From IMG/VR virus record IMGVR_UViG_2609459833_000010, positions 1 through 5,101 of that record: a DNA stretch of 5,101 nucleotides, one strand, 5' to 3'. The position numbers were made by a program, and so were the translations under genes. Below are positions 1-5,101 of this stretch, piece by piece. A model generated the notes under the pieces. That model was not told the DNA's origin, did not search any database, and saw only the letters and a program-made list of their open reading frames with translations. Origin of the DNA: a virus. Lineage: Duplodnaviria; Heunggongvirae; Uroviricota; Caudoviricetes. How positions within the stretch are numbered: position 1 is the stretch's first letter; the number at the start of each line of letters is the position of its first letter.

Positions 1-276
1 CAGGCTAACTGGCCGAATCTTGCCACGTTCTTCGCTTATCCAACGGACATCCGCAAAGTGATCTATACGACGAATGCCATCGAGTCGCTAAACAGCGTGA
101 TCCGCCATGCGATCAAAAAGCGTAAAGTGTTCCCGACAGACGACTCGGTGAAAAAAGTGGTGTGGCTGGCAATCCAGGCGGCTTCACAGAAATGGACGAT
201 GCCACTGCGGGACTGGCGTATGGCAATGAGCCGCTTTATTATCGAGTTCGGTGACCGCCTGGACGGCCACTTCTGA
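1..276 (+). CDS. IS256-family (Mutator-type) transposase, C-terminal fragment; the 5' end lies upstream of the window
   Basis: Frame 1 is open from base 1 to the stop at 274-276. The translation (QANWPNLATFFAYPTDIRKVIYTTNAIESLNSVIRHAIKKRKVFPTDDSVKK...KWTMPLRDWRMAMSRFIIEFGDRLDGHF) carries the C-terminal motifs typical of IS256-family transposases (YTTNxIESLN, KWTMP, F..RL). Recognised from memory, not searched. Confidence 0.8.
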   Translation, partial: QANWPNLATFFAYPTDIRKVIYTTNAIESLNSVIRHAIKKRKVFPTDDSVKKVVWLAIQAASQKWTMPLRDWRMAMSRFIIEFGDRLDGHF

Positions 277-290
277 GAAAAGGTATTTAC
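1..290 (+). mobile_element. Right-hand end of an IS256-family insertion sequence; the exact terminus is not determined
   Basis: Inferred from the transposase 3' end at 1-276. The terminal inverted repeat could not be located from sequence alone. The element must end within a few tens of bp of the stop and may overlap the 3' end of the convergent gene at 287-523. Confidence 0.45.
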
Positions 291-523
291 ACAGAATCCT
301 GAACAGGCTCTCCCCATTGTTTGTTCTTAAGTTCGATCTCCTCCTGGCAACTTGCACAAGTCCGACAACCCTGAACAGCCAGGCGTCTTCGCTCATCTAT
401 CGGATCGCCACACTCACAACAATGAGTTGCGGATACAGTCTGGTAGTTCAGACGACGCATTTTTATTGCTGTATTGCGCTGTAATTCTTCGATTTCTGAT
501 GCTGAATCAATGATGTCTGCCAT
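287..523 (-). CDS. TraR/DksA-family C4 zinc-finger protein (phage TraR-like, of the lambda Orf73 class)
   Basis: 78-aa ORF with an ATG start. It contains C-x2-C-x17-C-x2-C (CCEC...GDPIDERRRLAVQGCRT...CASC), the zinc-finger signature of TraR/DksA proteins, and its size matches F-plasmid TraR (73 aa). Confidence 0.8.
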   Translation of the reverse strand: MADIIDSASEIEELQRNTAIKMRRLNYQTVSATHCCECGDPIDERRRLAVQGCRTCASCQEEIELKNKQWGEPVQDSV

Positions 524-576
524 CTTTCATTAATCCCTGAATTGTTGGTTAATACGCTTGAGGGTAAATGCGAATA

Positions 577-600
577 ATAAAAAAGGAGCCTGTAGCTCCC
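577..600 (-). terminator. Weak candidate intrinsic terminator for the minus strand
   Basis: On the minus strand, a GGAGC / 5-nt loop / GCTCC hairpin (586-600) is followed by TTTTTTATT (577-585), about 20 nt after the stop of the 622-903 ORF. The stem is only 5 bp. Confidence 0.3.
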
Positions 601-621
601 TGATGATTTTGCTTTTCATGT

Positions 622-903
622 TCATCGTTCCTTAAAGACGCCGTTCAACATGCCGATCGCCAGGCTTAAATGAGTCGGTGTGAATCCCATCAGCGTTACC
701 GTTTCGCGGTGCTTCTTTAGTACGCTACGGCAAATGTCATCGACGTTTTTATCCGGAAACTGCTGTCTGGCTTTTTTGATTTCAGAATTAGCCTGACGGG
801 CAATGCTGCGAAGGGCGTTTTCTTGCTGAGGAGTCACTGAACAAGCCCCATGCCGGCAAGCATAAGCACACAGAATATGAAGCCCGCTGCCAGAAAAATG
901 CAT
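622..903 (-). CDS. Hypothetical small phage protein; the real start may be the internal GTG at 835-837, giving 71 aa
   Basis: 93-aa ORF from an ATG. The C-terminal 70 residues look protein-like (SEIKKARQQFPDKNVDDICRSVLKKHRETVTLMGF...), while the N-terminal 22 are Cys/His/Gly-rich and overlap another ORF. A GTG at 835-837 overlaps the stop of the 834-917 ORF. Confidence 0.45.
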   Translation of the reverse strand: MHFSGSGLHILCAYACRHGACSVTPQQENALRSIARQANSEIKKARQQFPDKNVDDICRSVLKKHRETVTLMGFTPTHLSLAIGMLNGVFKER

Positions 904-917
904 TCAGTGGTTGTCAT
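834..917 (-). CDS. Putative 27-aa hydrophobic single-helix peptide (MTTTECIFLAAGFIFCVLMLAGMGLVQ)
   Basis: Not in the supplied ORF track because it is short. Its ATG (915-917) overlaps the TGA stop of the upstream 914-1105 ORF as ATGA, suggesting translational coupling, and a purine-rich GAGAGAG lies 6 nt upstream. The product is almost entirely a transmembrane-like segment. Confidence 0.3.
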   Translation of the reverse strand: MTTTECIFLAAGFIFCVLMLAGMGLVQ

Positions 918-1105
918 ACCTGGTCTCTCTCATCTGCTTCTGCTTTCGCCACCATCATTTCCAGCTTTTGTGAAAGGGATGTGGCTAACGTATGAAATTC
1001 TTCGTCTGTTTCTACTGGTATTGGCACAAACCTGACTCTAATTTGAGCAAGGCTATGTGCCATCTCAATACTCGTTCTTAACTCAACAGGAGATGCTTTG
1101 TGCAT
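914..1105 (-). CDS. Small lambda early-left protein (orf60a/orf63 class), function unknown
   Basis: 63-aa ORF. It sits in the same position relative to exo as the small non-essential ORFs in phage lambda and overlaps the next ORF by 28 nt, as those do. Confidence 0.6.
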   Translation of the reverse strand: MHKASPVELRTSIEMAHSLAQIRVRFVPIPVETDEEFHTLATSLSQKLEMMVAKAEADERDQV

Positions 1106-1266
1106 ACCGCCTCCCGTTTATTATTTATCTTCTCAGCCAGCCGCTGTGCTTTCAGTGGATTTCTGATAACAGAAAGGCCGGGAAATACCCAGCCTCGCTT
1201 TGTAACGGAGTAGACGAAAATGATCGCGCCTACCCGGATATTATCGTGAGGATGCGTCATCGCCAT
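1078..1266 (-). CDS. Small phage protein immediately downstream of exo, function unknown
   Basis: 62-aa ORF ([62 protein letters not shown]). Its start overlaps the exo stop by 10 nt, so it belongs to the same leftward operon. Confidence 0.5.
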
Positions 1267-1937
1267 TGCTCCCCAAATACAAAACCAATTTCAGCCAGTG
1301 CCTCGTCCATTTTTTCGATGAACTCCGGCACCATCTCGTCAAAACTCGCCATGTACTTTTCATTCCGCTCAATCACGACATAATGCAGGCCTTCACGCTT
1401 CATGCGCGGGTCATAGTTGGCAAAGTACCAGGCATCTTTTCGCGTCACCCACATGCTGTACTGCACCTGGGCCATGTAAGCCGATTTTATTGCCTCGAAA
1501 CCACCGAGCCGGAATTTCATGAAATCCCGGGAGGTAAACGGGCATTTCAGTTCAAGGCCGTTGCCGTCACTGCATAAACCATCGGGAGAGCAGGCGGTGC
1601 GCATACTTTCGTCGCGATAGATGATCGGGGATTCAGTAACATTCACGCCGGAAGTGAATTCAAACAGGGTTCTGGCGTCGTTCTCGTACTGTTTTCCCCA
1701 GGCCAGCGCCTTAGCATTAACTTCCGGAGCCACACCGGTGCAAACCTCAGCCAGCAGGGTGTGGAAGTAGGACATTTTCATGTCAGGCCACTTCTTTCCT
1801 GAGCGGGGCTTTGCTATCACGTTGTGAACTTCTGAAGCGGTGATGACGCCGAGCCGTAATTTGTGCCATGCATCATCCCCCTGTTCGACAGCTCTCACGT
1901 CGATCCCGGTACGCTGCAGGATAATGTCCGGTGTCAT
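1257..1937 (-). CDS. exo: Lambda exonuclease (Red alpha), 5'-3' dsDNA exonuclease
   Basis: 226 aa, the length of lambda Exo. The sequence ([43 protein letters not shown]...) is recognised as essentially lambda Exo. Its start overlaps the bet stop by 4 nt, as in lambda. Confidence 0.96.
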
Positions 1938-2719
1938 GCTGCCTCCTTCTGCTCAGTGGCTTTCTGTTTCAGGAATCCAAGAGCTTTCACTGCTTCGGCC
2001 TGTGTCAGTTCTGACGATGCGCGAATGTCGCGGCGAAATATCTGGGAACAGAGCGGCAATAAGTCGTCATCCCATGTTTTATCCAGGGCGATCAGCAGAG
2101 TGTTAATCTCCTGCATGGTTTCATCGTTAACCGGAGTGATGTCGCGTTCCGGCTGACGTTCTGCAGTGTTAGCAGTATTTTCGACAATGCGCTCGGCTTC
2201 ATCCTTGTCATAGATACCAGCAAATCCGAAGGCCAGACGGGCACACTGAATCATGGCTTTATGCCGTAACATCCGTTTGGGATGCGACTGCCACGGTCCG
2301 GTGATTTCTCTGCCTTCGCGGGTTTTGAATGGTTCGCGGCGGCATTCATCCATCCACTCGGTAACGCAGATCGGATGATTACGGTCCTTGCGGTAAATCC
2401 GGCATGTACAGGATTCATTGTCCTGCTCAAAGTCCATGCCATCAAACTGCTGGTTTTCATTGATGATGCGGGACCAGCCATCAACGCCCACCACCGGAAC
2501 GATGCCGTTCTGCTTATCAGGGAAGGCGTAAATTTCTTTCGTCCACGGATTAAGGCCGTACTGGTTGGCGACGATCAACAATGCGATGAACTGCGCATCG
2601 CTGGCATCACCTTTAAATGCCGTCTGGCGAAGAGTGGTGATCAGTTCCTGTGGGTCGACAGAATCCATGCCGACACGTTCAGCCAGCTTCCCAGCCAGCG
2701 TTGCGAGTGCTGTACTCAT
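1934..2719 (-). CDS. bet: Lambda Beta (Red beta) single-strand annealing protein
   Basis: 261 aa, the length of lambda Bet. The sequence ([66 protein letters not shown]...) is recognised as essentially lambda Bet. A GAGG Shine-Dalgarno lies about 10 nt upstream. Confidence 0.96.
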
Positions 2720-2724
2720 CCGTT

Positions 2725-3021
2725 TTATACCTCTGAATCAATATCAACCTGATGGTGAGCAATGGTTTCAACCATGTACCGGATGTGTTCTGCCATGCGC
2801 TCCTGAAACTCAACATCGTCATCAAATGCACGGGTAATGGCTTTTTTGCTGGCCCCGTGGCGTTGCAAATGATCGATGCAGAGTGATTCAAACAGGTGCT
2901 GTGGAAGACCTTTTTCCATGTCGTCTGCCAGTTCTGCCTCTTTCTCTTCACGGGCAATCTGCTGGTAGTGACGCGCCCAGCTCTGAGCCTCAAGACGATC
3001 CTGAATGTAATAAGCGTTCAT
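2725..3021 (-). CDS. gam: Host-nuclease (RecBCD) inhibitor Gam, short form
   Basis: 98-aa ORF ([60 protein letters not shown]...[10 protein letters not shown]) recognised as lambda GamS. An AGGAG Shine-Dalgarno lies 7 nt upstream of the ATG. An in-frame stop at 3076-3078 with no start codon in between rules out the longer lambda-type form here. Confidence 0.94.
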
Positions 3022-3096
3022 GGCTGAACTCCTGAAAATGGCTGTGAAAATATCGCCCGCGAAATGCCAGGCTGATTAGGAAAACAGGAAAGGGGA

Positions 3097-3507
3097 TTAG
3101 TGATTCAGGCCGTTGCCTCGTCCGTCGAGAAAAACTTCCACGAGCAAATCACGGGTATAAGTGCGCTCGATGCCGCGATGCAGATATAGCCGTCCGCGTA
3201 AATTAGCTGATGCTGTCCAGGTACCATCTTTGTGTTTGACCAGCATTCCTGGCATGACCGCACCGCGATTAACGGTCTGCGTTCCGTAATGTTGATGAAC
3301 CATAAAAACTCCTGCCCGTAAGCTGGGCTGCTGAACATATAAAGACTTCTGCGCGTATTCAGGCGGTGGATGGCCGCCGGTTGTCATAACTAAGCCGCCT
3401 CGTTGAAGCGACTGAGGTATGAAATGTTGAGTTAATTTCAGCTGGTCACACCGACGTTCACGCGTCCGCTTCACCCCTCGCACTTCCCGGAGCCTGCTGA
3501 AATTCAA
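3097..3507 (-). CDS. Hypothetical Arg-rich protein or gene remnant; no ATG at the head of the ORF
   Basis: 136-codon open frame, and the plus strand here is closed in all frames. The frame opens right after a stop at 3517-3519 and its first start-like codon is TTG. The first ATG is codon 41, preceded by GAGG about 10 nt upstream, which would give 96 aa. No family recognised. Confidence 0.3.
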   Translation of the reverse strand: MNFSRLREVRGVKRTRERRCDQLKLTQHFIPQSLQRGGLVMTTGGHPPPEYAQKSLYVQQPSLRAGVFMVHQHYGTQTVNRGAVMPGMLVKHKDGTWTASANLRGRLYLHRGIERTYTRDLLVEVFLDGRGNGLNH

Positions 3508-3588
3508 GCTACGGATCTAAGCGGTCATCGCAACGGTGAATCAGGTGGTTGCCGTATCGTTGTGTTGTTGCGATATGATGATAATAGC

Positions 3589-3625
3589 TATTGCTATTGG
3601 TGATATCAATACTTATTGCTATTGG
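3589..3625. repeat. Two perfect copies of a 12-bp direct repeat, TATTGCTATTGG, 25 bp apart in AT-rich intergenic DNA
   Basis: Read directly: 3589-3600 and 3614-3625. Each copy is itself a GCTATT-type tandem, and both lie in the AT-rich spacer between the terminator at 3747-3774 and the ORF at 3097-3507. Confidence 0.5.
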
Positions 3626-3746
3626 CTGATGTGTTTTGATATTAAATGTTTGATAGCAAAAAGAATTAATTTTGTGACTTGCATCGCATAGCGATAACTG
3701 AAGCAGGGGCATGGTGGTTTTTTGAACGGTGTGTGATGAGGGGAGG

Positions 3747-3774
3747 CAAAAGAAAACCCGGCACGACGGCCGGG
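3747..3774 (-). terminator. Intrinsic (rho-independent) terminator downstream of the membrane-protein gene
   Basis: On the minus strand, a GC-rich hairpin CCCGGC-cgtcgt-GCCGGG (3757-3774) is followed by TTTTCTTTTG (3747-3756), starting 9 nt after the TGA stop at 3783-3785. Confidence 0.55.
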
Positions 3775-3782
3775 GAGGGGGG

Positions 3783-4289
3783 TCATTTTAATCTATCAAG
3801 GAGTGACTCTCTTTCCTTCTTCTCTGATTCTCTTCGGTTTAATAACGCTTTAAACTCTTGAAGCTCAACCATTATTTTATGAACGAATACACTGGTATAG
3901 AGAGAAATAAAGAGTAATCCACCTGAAATTTTTAAGACCCTGAAGAGTAGGGCTTGATCATTTGTGCTTGCTATTAACCCCAAGATTACAAACAAAGTTG
4001 AAAATACATAGAAAGCTAATAATAAAACCAATTTCAGTCTCTTGGATTTGACTATTGGCACTAATCGCCTAACCTCACTAGGGGTTAAAGACGAGTGGTC
4101 ATTGGCCTCATTTGCCTTAAAAATGGCTTGTATACAATATGATAATGGCAATTGCATGAGTCCAACCACAGCCCACGGAGCTGTTAGGACAACACCCGGT
4201 GTAATATAGCCCAATGCTGACTTGAACAAAAAGTAACCAGCAACATAGAAGACCAACATACCAATAAGGTGGATGATGTTCGATTTCAT
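3783..4289 (-). CDS. Predicted integral membrane protein (about 4 transmembrane helices, charged C-terminal tail), function unknown
   Basis: 168-aa ORF with an ATG start and a canonical AGGAGG Shine-Dalgarno 5 nt upstream. Hydrophobic stretches sit at about residues 5-22, 30-57, 85-107 and 112-136, followed by a Lys/Glu/Arg-rich tail (LQEFKALLNRRESEKKERESLLDRLK). The gene is AT-rich and starts 21 nt after the upstream gene's stop. Confidence 0.75.
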   Translation of the reverse strand: MKSNIIHLIGMLVFYVAGYFLFKSALGYITPGVVLTAPWAVVGLMQLPLSYCIQAIFKANEANDHSSLTPSEVRRLVPIVKSKRLKLVLLLAFYVFSTLFVILGLIASTNDQALLFRVLKISGGLLFISLYTSVFVHKIMVELQEFKALLNRRESEKKERESLLDRLK

Positions 4290-4310
4290 TATCGCCCTCC
4301 TTTTGGTAGG

Positions 4311-4781
4311 TTATTTTGCAACCAATTCTCCGGCATCAAGTTTTGAGAACAGCCACTTATGCATTTTTAAGAATAAATCATTTTCATCAATAATGCCATT
4401 GTTATGTTCAACGCTAATTTTTCCGGATAATTTTATCTCTTTTCCCGTTATTTCCCCACCGCCTTGAAGTTTGATGCTAATATCATCCTCATCTAGATGT
4501 CGTAGTGAGGTAGCAATACTGTCTATAACAGCTTGACCGCTATCATTTGTTTTTCTGAAGTATGTAATCTCGAGGCTTACTTGTAAATTGGCCTCATCTA
4601 ATGAATCTTTAATGTTTATATCATTTGCCCAGTTATCGCCAAAAAATGCTTTTAGTAGCGCACCTCCTTTCCCTATTGGGCGGTATTTTATTGTCTTCAC
4701 CGAACCATTTGAAAAGGAGGGTGTTTGGTTCTCTGAATTTTTAACTTCTGAAGTAATGGGTAATCTGATCTTACCCAGCAA
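4311..4781 (-). CDS. Hypothetical soluble protein, first gene of the two-gene cassette; 5' end apparently truncated by the IS3 insertion
   Basis: 156-codon frame ending in TAA at 4311-4313. The head of the frame (4766-4781) is IS3 inverted-repeat sequence and the first start-like codon is a TTG inside IS3. The native portion (4765 and below) has no ATG until near the C-terminus, and its only GTG (codon 28) has no Shine-Dalgarno. No family recognised. Confidence 0.55.
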   Translation of the reverse strand: MLGKIRLPITSEVKNSENQTPSFSNGSVKTIKYRPIGKGGALLKAFFGDNWANDINIKDSLDEANLQVSLEITYFRKTNDSGQAVIDSIATSLRHLDEDDISIKLQGGGEITGKEIKLSGKISVEHNNGIIDENDLFLKMHKWLFSKLDAGELVAK

Positions 4782-5101
4782 TAGTGGACACGCGGCTAAG
4801 TGAGTAAACTCTCAGTCAGAGGTGACTCACATGACAAAAACAGTATCAACCAGTAAAAAACCCCGTAAACAGCATTCGCCTGAATTTCGCAGTGAAGCCC
4901 TGAAGCTTGCTGAACGCATCGGTGTTACTGCCGCAGCCCGTGAACTCAGCCTGTATGAATCACAACTCTACAACTGGCGCAGTAAACAGCAAAATCAGCA
5001 GACGTCTTCTGAACGTGAACTGGAGATGTCTACCGAGATTGCACGTCTCAAACGCCAGCTGGCAGAACGGGATGAAGAGCTGGCTATCCTCCAAAAGGCC
5101 G
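4766..5101 (+). mobile_element. IS3 (IS3 family), left end and start of orfA; continues beyond the window
   Basis: The left inverted repeat begins at 4766 (TGATCTTACCCAGCAATAGTGGACACGCGGCTAAGTGAG...), followed by the orfA start at 4831. Recognised as the E. coli IS3 left end. Confidence 0.93.
4831..5101 (+). CDS. insE: IS3 OrfA (transposase N-terminal helix-turn-helix / leucine-zipper protein), 3' end outside the window
   Basis: Translation from the ATG at 4831 (MTKTVSTSKKPRKQHSPEFRSEALKLAERIGVTAAARELSLYESQLYNWRSKQQNQQTSSERELEMSTEIARLKRQLAERDEELAILQKA) is recognised as IS3 OrfA (InsE). It is absent from the ORF track only because no stop falls inside the window. Confidence 0.93.
   Translation, partial: MTKTVSTSKKPRKQHSPEFRSEALKLAERIGVTAAARELSLYESQLYNWRSKQQNQQTSSERELEMSTEIARLKRQLAERDEELAILQKA

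Follow-up and report, generated by a model that had tools for sequence, protein, structure and literature searches.

A probable small protein gene, orf27, between orf63 and orf61 in the pL operon of lambda-type phages

The stretch of DNA analysed here, positions 1 to 5,101 of the IMG/VR virus record IMGVR_UViG_2609459833_000010 (5,101 nucleotides, referred to below as the window), carries on its minus strand part of the early leftward (pL) operon of a prophage of the lambda type. Between two genes of this operon, orf63 and orf61, lies a 27-codon open reading frame (ORF), here called orf27, that encodes a very hydrophobic peptide. Judged from the substitutions among its copies, purifying selection acts on the amino-acid sequence in the 27-codon frame only, and it is quite probable, as far as sequence comparison can tell, that orf27 is a true gene, coding for a small protein, in the pL operon of lambda-type phages. 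An earlier note, made from the letters of the window, had described the 914-1105 ORF, the 27-codon frame, the ATGA and GTGA overlaps at its two ends and a 71-residue version of the ORF that follows, and all of these are present. The four features that matter most are as follows.

914-1105, minus strand: orf63 (DUF1382), 63 residues, from Pfam PF07131 (E 9e-29) and the lambda annotation.
834-917, minus strand: orf27, 27 codons, encoding MTTTECIFLAAGFIFCVLMLAGMGLVQ, from the ORF list, the selection test and the overlaps.
622-837, minus strand: true orf61, 71 residues from GTG 837, from the starts of its homologues, the calls of the Prokaryotic Genome Annotation Pipeline (PGAP) and omega (the ratio of non-synonymous to synonymous change).
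838-903, minus strand: 22-codon N-terminal extension of a 93-residue ORF (622-903), non-coding in the 93-residue frame.

The 27-codon frame and its conservation

The TGA of orf63 (916..914) overlaps the ATG of orf27 (917..915) as ATGA at 914-917, and the TGA of orf27 (836..834) overlaps the GTG of orf61 (837..835) as GTGA at 834-837. GTG 837 shares the frame of the 622-903 ORF, and reading from it yields the 71-residue product. Phage lambda carries the same 27-codon ORF at 30925-31008 on the complement strand, encoding MTTTECIFLAAGFIFCVLMLADMGLVQ, inside its annotated orf61, and there the TGA overlaps an ATG and not a GTG. Over positions 560-1300 the window aligns with lambda 30650-31391 at 96.8% identity, and 181 phage records match this region at 90% identity or more, nearly all of them above 95%. 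When the spacer was shuffled with both ends fixed, 36% of the shuffles stayed open, so that the openness of orf27 is not significant in itself and was not used as evidence.

Copies of orf27 were pooled from phage records, IMG/VR contigs, gut metagenome contigs and three E. coli chromosomes. The frame is open in 322 of the 323 full copies, the exception being a copy with a single nucleotide deleted, on a low-coverage contig (1.3x); of 176 phage records, 175 have the frame at its full length. The open copies comprise 37 nucleotide haplotypes, and 271 of the 322 (84%) encode the identical peptide; among the variants, the last codon alone is lost in two copies and the stop is read through in one. 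In complete E. coli genomes orf27 is widespread, being found in 3142 of 5426 (58%) at 4255 places, Shiga-toxin prophages included.

For the substitution test each site-and-allele was counted once and a binomial p value was calculated against an expected synonymous fraction of 24-26%. In the 27-codon frame there are 14 synonymous and 15 non-synonymous changes, giving an omega of about 0.35 (p 0.003-0.01). The same changes read in the sense +1 frame are 7 synonymous and 22 non-synonymous, and the sense +2 frame, which is that of the 93-residue ORF, gives the same 7 and 22; in both omega is ~1 and the result is not significant. Counted per copy, synonymous variants in the 27-codon frame occur 453 times and non-synonymous variants 57 times, and 10 of the 14 variants that are present in at least five copies are synonymous. 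By the same procedure omega is 0.15 for orf61 (71 residues), 0.25 for a 31-residue ORF that follows it (p 0.02), 0.36 for orf27, 0.48 for orf60a, which precedes orf63, and 0.74 for orf63 itself, and on this comparison orf27 looks at least as ‘coding’ as neighbours with studied products. The frame singled out in the earlier note thus behaves as a real protein-coding gene, and the condition that the note had named as refuting it turned out the opposite way, since the 27-codon frame is preserved in related phages and it is the first 22 codons of the 93-residue frame that evolve like non-coding DNA.

Few genomes have been annotated as closely as that of lambda, yet the lambda reference records are without orf27. 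The 27-codon ORF is annotated in none of the phage and RefSeq records examined, which are inconsistent among themselves in the start of orf61, and in E. coli chromosomes the current PGAP calls the 71-residue form and leaves a 76-nt ‘intergenic’ gap at orf27. The suggestion that small hydrophobic peptides of this kind are often missed in annotation therefore holds for lambda, 933W and the current RefSeq E. coli annotations, all of which lack orf27, but not throughout: the exact peptide is found in NCBI nr and UniRef as a ‘hypothetical protein’ from some older E. coli annotations, on 981 contigs, and orf27 is thus not entirely unannotated. The peptide string did not occur in a text search of the available literature, nor was the peptide found in the available supplementary files of the Sakai small-gene study.

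The predicted peptide and its coupling to orf63 and orf61

The product of orf27 is most likely a single very hydrophobic helix with a predicted inner-membrane location. Its grand average of hydropathy (GRAVY) of 1.73 is the highest among the 56 ATG-initiated ORFs of at least 20 residues in the window, and only 0.4% of stop-free 27-residue windows in all six frames reach this value. For the 21-residue segment formed by residues 6-26 the summed Hessa insertion energy is -2.9 kcal/mol in the variant found in the window. A search of Pfam, PHROGs, NCBIfam and PADLOC for a family returned only insignificant matches to transmembrane segments. A lipoprotein signal peptide was considered and rejected, there being no lipobox and Phe preceding Cys16.

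Several enterobacterial small inner-membrane proteins, among them KdpF, AcrZ, MgtS and PmrR, bind larger membrane proteins. The orf27 peptide resembles these proteins of 27-50 residues in being essentially one helix, and KdpF shares with it the absence of positive charges; it differs from them in being phage-borne, in showing no sequence similarity and in having a membrane location that is predicted. In function the orf27 peptide would most probably be a small partner in the membrane, or a modulator, of a membrane protein of the host or of the phage. A wider parallel is offered by the ‘Entero67K’ microproteins, ORFs of 15-70 codons in annotated ‘intergenic’ gaps that are mostly hydrophobic and were recognised by purifying selection (PMC11188072). 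Like them orf27 is short, hydrophobic, located in an ‘intergenic’ gap and under purifying selection, although a search of the available supplementary files of that study did not turn up its peptide. Conserved hydrophobic microproteins are now known to be common in enterobacteria (PMC11188072), and orf27 would be one more; it stands out in being present in phage lambda and in more than half of complete E. coli genomes, and in altering the interpretation of orf61.

Type I toxins such as Hok, Ibs, TisB, DinQ and ShoB form another class of short, hydrophobic peptides that are frequently carried by prophages and frequently overlooked in annotation; they are encoded at loci with a promoter of their own, a structured untranslated leader and an antisense RNA. 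A membrane-damaging peptide of type I toxin or holin-like character, acting in host killing or abortive infection, is a reading of the function of orf27 that would leave its status as a gene untouched, and it seems unlikely. The peptide (27 residues, GRAVY 1.73) is similar in size and hydrophobicity to the Ibs, DinQ and TisB type, and orf27 lies in an early region, the ‘bin’ region, that is harmful to the host when expressed (PMC9239242). Unlike the type I toxin loci, though, orf27 is embedded in an operon, with a start that overlaps the upstream stop and a coupling to its neighbours that the layout suggests, and neither a promoter-like site of its own nor a structured leader was detected. A consensus scan gave no plus-strand promoter-like site for an antisense RNA near 834-917, although such a scan cannot exclude one, and there was no match in PADLOC. 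The silent presence of orf27 in 58% of E. coli genomes is uninformative on toxicity either way.

The RNA across 790-960 is less structured than its own shuffles (z +2.4). A structured RNA element at 790-960 was accordingly rejected, since the region folds worse than the shuffles, as was an arrest or leader peptide of the SecM, MifM or TnaC type, for which no stable structure across 790-960 is available to sequester the downstream ribosome-binding site. A programmed -1 frameshift fusing Orf63 to the peptide was rejected because no slippery heptamer precedes the orf63 stop. A natural in-frame fusion of Orf63 and the peptide does occur, through a 1-nt deletion, as an 89-residue product in six contigs (P0016, …AKAEANERACMTTTECIFLAAGFIFCVLMLSGMGLVQ); it would tether Orf63 to the hydrophobic helix.

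Both ends of orf27 are joined to its neighbours in nearly all copies. At its start the ATGA is kept in all 312 copies with enough flanking sequence, and this in two different settings, as the gene upstream is orf63 in 274 copies and an unrelated Dam-type methyltransferase gene in 38. In the latter, homology to the window starts exactly at the orf27 ATG, with a GGAGG 4 nt upstream. At the other end an ATGA or GTGA overlap with the orf61 start is kept in 319 of 322 copies and TAATG is found in two more, the junction reading CAATGA in 278 copies, CAGTGA in 41 and TAATGA in two. The energy calculated for the duplex with the anti-Shine-Dalgarno sequence is -10.3 kcal/mol for orf63, which has a strong Shine-Dalgarno sequence (GGGAGG), compared with -3.1 to -5.6 kcal/mol for orf27 and -3.9 to -4.7 kcal/mol for orf61. 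On the minus strand from 1105 to 622, a consensus scan gave no promoter-like or terminator-like site between orf63 and orf61.

Given the weak Shine-Dalgarno sequence of orf27, translation probably proceeds by termination-reinitiation. After terminating at the TGA of the gene before orf27, ribosomes would begin again at the orf27 ATG that overlaps this TGA, and those finishing orf27 would restart in turn at the overlapping ATG or GTG of orf61, in a relay from orf63 to orf27, to orf61 and on to the 31-residue ORF. Coupling of this kind at 4-nt ATGA overlaps is credited to Huber et al. 2019 (PMC6728339, as cited), and orf27 shares with such pairs the stop/start geometry within one transcription unit; it differs from a simple ATGA-coupled pair in that two such junctions flank one 27-codon ORF and form a relay. 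The translational coupling proposed in the earlier note is therefore well matched by the layout, in the conserved overlaps, the weak Shine-Dalgarno sequences and the lack of an intervening promoter-like or terminator-like site, while the coupling itself is deduced from that layout. What the sequences show directly is the geometry of the overlaps, the conservation of the frame with selection on its amino-acid sequence, and the start of orf61; translation of orf27 and insertion of its product into the membrane are inferred.

Such a relay could in principle be the whole purpose of orf27, which would then be translated merely to hand ribosomes from orf63 to orf61, its peptide being functionless and degraded. 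The two downstream starts, with their weak Shine-Dalgarno sites and 4-nt overlaps, are what this explanation would expect. In the sample, which was anchored on orf27, orf61 lies directly behind every true copy, and orf27 was never found without it. Phages of the PhiR5_1 type lack orf27 altogether, and their orf61 differs in its first residues and has a GAGG site of its own; in a Klebsiella phage a methyltransferase gene lies directly upstream of the orf61 homologue and is coupled to it by ATGA, so that where orf27 is missing orf61 has either a site of its own or a direct coupling to the methylase. It would appear that orf27 always travels with orf61 and that orf61 can exist alone. A pure relay, however, needs just an open frame and its amino-acid sequence should drift, in contrast to the omega of about 0.35 and to the identical peptide in 84% of copies drawn from 37 DNA haplotypes; nor does a relay have any need for the highest hydrophobicity among the ORFs of the window. 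We consider a relay with a functionless peptide to be slightly less likely still than a toxin.

Set against a genuine gene encoding a membrane peptide are several points. The selection test is based on only 29 mutational events, and the sequences compared are close relatives with an identity of at least 90%. Outside the lambdoid phages of E. coli no diverged homologue of orf27 was found, and a blastn search in distant mode and a tblastn search of the phage collection gave nothing below 90% DNA or 92% peptide identity. The presence of orf61 without orf27 in the PhiR5_1-type phages and in other genera implies that orf27 is dispensable for orf61. The common lambda-type variant with Asp22 has a Hessa energy of ~0 kcal/mol, which is borderline for insertion, and as Lys and Arg are absent from the peptide, whose charged residues are limited to Glu5 and, in most copies, Asp22, the positive-inside rule yields no topology. 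Finally, a review that summarises the ribosome profiling of lambda names only a 7-residue and a 31-residue ORF as extra ORFs in this region (PMC8614690).

The 31-residue ORF of that review, ‘orf2313’, is a close parallel to orf27 in lambda itself. Both are tiny, lie in the same exo-xis block on the same strand and are joined by ATGA to the upstream neighbour, and both are absent from the classical annotation and show a similar signal of purifying selection (omega 0.25 for ‘orf2313’). Unlike orf27, ‘orf2313’ is reported to be translated, as cited in PMC8614690, and it is not a pure hydrophobic helix; for orf27 a search for a report of translation by ribosome profiling found none.

The start of orf61 and the lambda deletion mutants

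The existence of orf27 is closely bound up with where orf61 begins. A tblastn search with the 71-residue product gave homologues at 30-47% identity in Klebsiella, Yersinia, Vibrio, Erwinia and Enterobacter phages. In the annotated homologues of Klebsiella (72 residues), Yersinia (74 residues) and Vibrio (66 residues), at 37-46% identity, the start aligns with the GTG/ATG at the end of orf27, and the first 22 residues of the 93-residue ORF have no counterpart in any distant Orf61 homologue. The start codon is GTG in the window and ATG in lambda and in 278 of the 322 copies. The 71-residue version that the earlier note derived from the GTG is thus borne out as the true start of orf61, both by the distant homologues and by PGAP, and the 93-residue reading and the 61-residue reading of lambda are, by the same token, artefacts of annotation. 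Were there no orf27, a stretch of 76 nt, highly conserved for no apparent reason, would separate orf63 from orf61.

The annotated orf61 of lambda (30839-31024) has its start at a more upstream ATG. An in-frame TGA comes after this ATG in the window, and the TGA cuts off the lambda-type start in the window and in ~57% of copies. The lambda gene differs in a second respect, in a poly-A tract within orf61 (~775-780) that is A6 in the window and A7 in lambda PaPa; among copies that were not selected on the tract, 197 of 218 have A6 and 21 have A7. With the extra A, Orf61 of the lambda PaPa type is truncated to 29 residues from the true start, and lambda Orf61 has already been noted as looking truncated (PMC8614690). 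Accepting orf27 would correct the annotation of its neighbour as well, Orf61 becoming a protein of 71 residues and the orf61 of lambda a frameshifted remnant.

The converse would be that the 93-residue ORF (622-903), or the 61-residue reading of lambda, is the real gene and the 27-codon frame, which both overlap out of frame, a chance ORF. Many GenBank and RefSeq phage records are annotated in this way, and PHROG 303 includes the N-terminal extension. Several findings argue in the other direction. In the overlap the 93-residue frame has the 7 synonymous and 22 non-synonymous changes given above (omega ~1); its ATG at 903 has no usable Shine-Dalgarno sequence, the duplex energy being -3.8 kcal/mol and the spacing poor; the distant homologues all begin 22 residues later, at residue 23; the current PGAP calls the 71-residue form; and in a published AlphaFold model, a three-helix fold, only residues 24-93 of Orf61 are placed in the fold (PMC8614690). 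The 61-residue reading is in addition contradicted by the TGA that removes its ATG in the window and in ~57% of copies. It is very improbable that either of these readings is correct. Weaker still is the proposal that the selection signal belongs to a plus-strand antisense ORF of 61 residues at 850-1035, which is open in most copies and picks up part of the signal (11 synonymous and 15 non-synonymous changes) because its third codon positions fall on the same nucleotide pairs as those of orf27, but which is on the strand of the pL operon that is not transcribed, is without a promoter-like site, loses its ATG in nine copies, varies freely where it overlaps orf63, runs in the Dam-type phages into the unrelated sequence upstream of orf27, excludes the synonymous changes at orf27 positions 72 and 81, and has non-synonymous changes at all four of the discriminating substitutions (26 changes, first 203 copies), each of which is synonymous in orf27; it can practically be dismissed.

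The 71-residue Orf61 is named ‘cell division protein ZapA’ in many RefSeq and GenBank records. For ZapA (Pfam PF05164) the protein scores 16.1-16.2 bits against a cut-off of 23.8 (E 0.014) and it has no NCBIfam match; with a score below the threshold and no such match, the name looks like an over-call.

A genuine orf27 also bears on mutants that have been assigned to orf61. When published deletion primers (PMC4699033) were mapped onto lambda, the ‘delta-orf61’ deletion was seen to remove 30889-30971, which corresponds to codons 13-27 of orf27 (the 15 C-terminal codons) together with the first 13 codons of true orf61; the corresponding deletion in Phi24B begins at nucleotide 73 of orf27. Phenotypes have been reported for the lambda delta-orf61 mutant (PMC6213356). 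As the deletions also cut orf27, the phenotypes of lysogenisation, prophage induction and adsorption that are assigned to orf61 are confounded, and since the orf61 of lambda is already frameshifted, those of delta-orf61 could come from the loss of orf27, from truncated orf61 or from polarity. In the same way ribosome density that has been credited to lambda ‘orf61’ could come from orf27. That orf27 is a functional membrane microprotein behind some or all of the lysis-lysogeny and induction phenotypes of lambda delta-orf61 is a tentative proposal, and rather unlikely. If it were true, the peptide could act on a host inner-membrane protein in the earliest minutes of infection.

The setting in the pL operon and the ends of the window

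The remaining features of the minus strand, in order of transcription, are as follows.

about 3100-3300, minus strand: kil, first in the order of transcription.
2725-3021, minus strand: gam, after kil.
1934-2719, minus strand: bet, after gam.
1257-1937, minus strand: exo (lambda exonuclease), a 226-residue ORF, from the exonuclease annotation in lambda and related records.
1078-1260, minus strand: orf60a (DUF1317), from Pfam PF07026 (E 1e-37) and the lambda annotation.
530-625, minus strand: 31-residue ORF encoding MNMKSKIIRELQAPFLLFAFTLKRINQQFRD, from the ORF list; its ATG overlaps the orf61 stop.
583-601, minus strand: terminator-like hairpin followed by a T-run, within the 31-residue ORF, from the consensus scan.
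287-523, minus strand: orf73, a gene of the TraR/DksA type, last in the order of transcription.

The chain of overlaps is longer than the earlier note had it, as ATGA also joins bet to exo (1934-1937), exo to orf60a (1257-1260) and orf61 to the 31-residue ORF (622-625). The lambda-type ATG of orf60a is at 1260, and a second in-frame ATG lies two codons upstream at 1266. The start of orf63 falls inside orf60a, the two overlapping by 28 nt. A scan for Orf63 in one genome per species gave only lambda itself, as contamination in unrelated assemblies. These loci (L011-L029) are in assemblies named Shewanella, Pseudomonas, Bradyrhizobium, Kitasatospora, Paenibacillus and others, and lambda DNA on contigs that are short, of low coverage or ~48 kb in length points to spike-in or reagent contamination and not to real prophages.

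The 31-residue ORF at 530-625 is probably the ‘orf2313’ of lambda, which is reported to have been found at the corresponding place by ribosome profiling, as cited in PMC8614690. The hairpin at 583-601, which corresponds to the t2 terminator predicted between orf61 and orf73 (PMC4195576), sits in the coding sequence of this ORF, so that ribosomes translating it would traverse the terminator stem.

Upstream of kil, where cIII, ea10, ral and N would be expected, the minus strand has instead an AT-rich cassette of two ORFs (3783-4781) between kil and an IS3-family element. The first ORF encodes 156 residues (4311-4781) and the second 168 residues with several hydrophobic stretches (3783-4289), and neither has a match in Pfam or PADLOC; the cassette could be a moron or an unclassified defence cassette. 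On the plus strand, 4831-5101 holds the start of an orfA of an IS3-family transposase (Pfam HTH_Tnp_1), and 1-276 the 3′ end of a transposase gene of the Mutator/IS256 family (Pfam PF00872), which adjoins the 3′ end of orf73. With remnants of insertion sequences at both ends of the window, the prophage fragment is a remnant bracketed by them, and as the last residues of orf73 differ from those of lambda, the insertion seems to have replaced the end of that gene.

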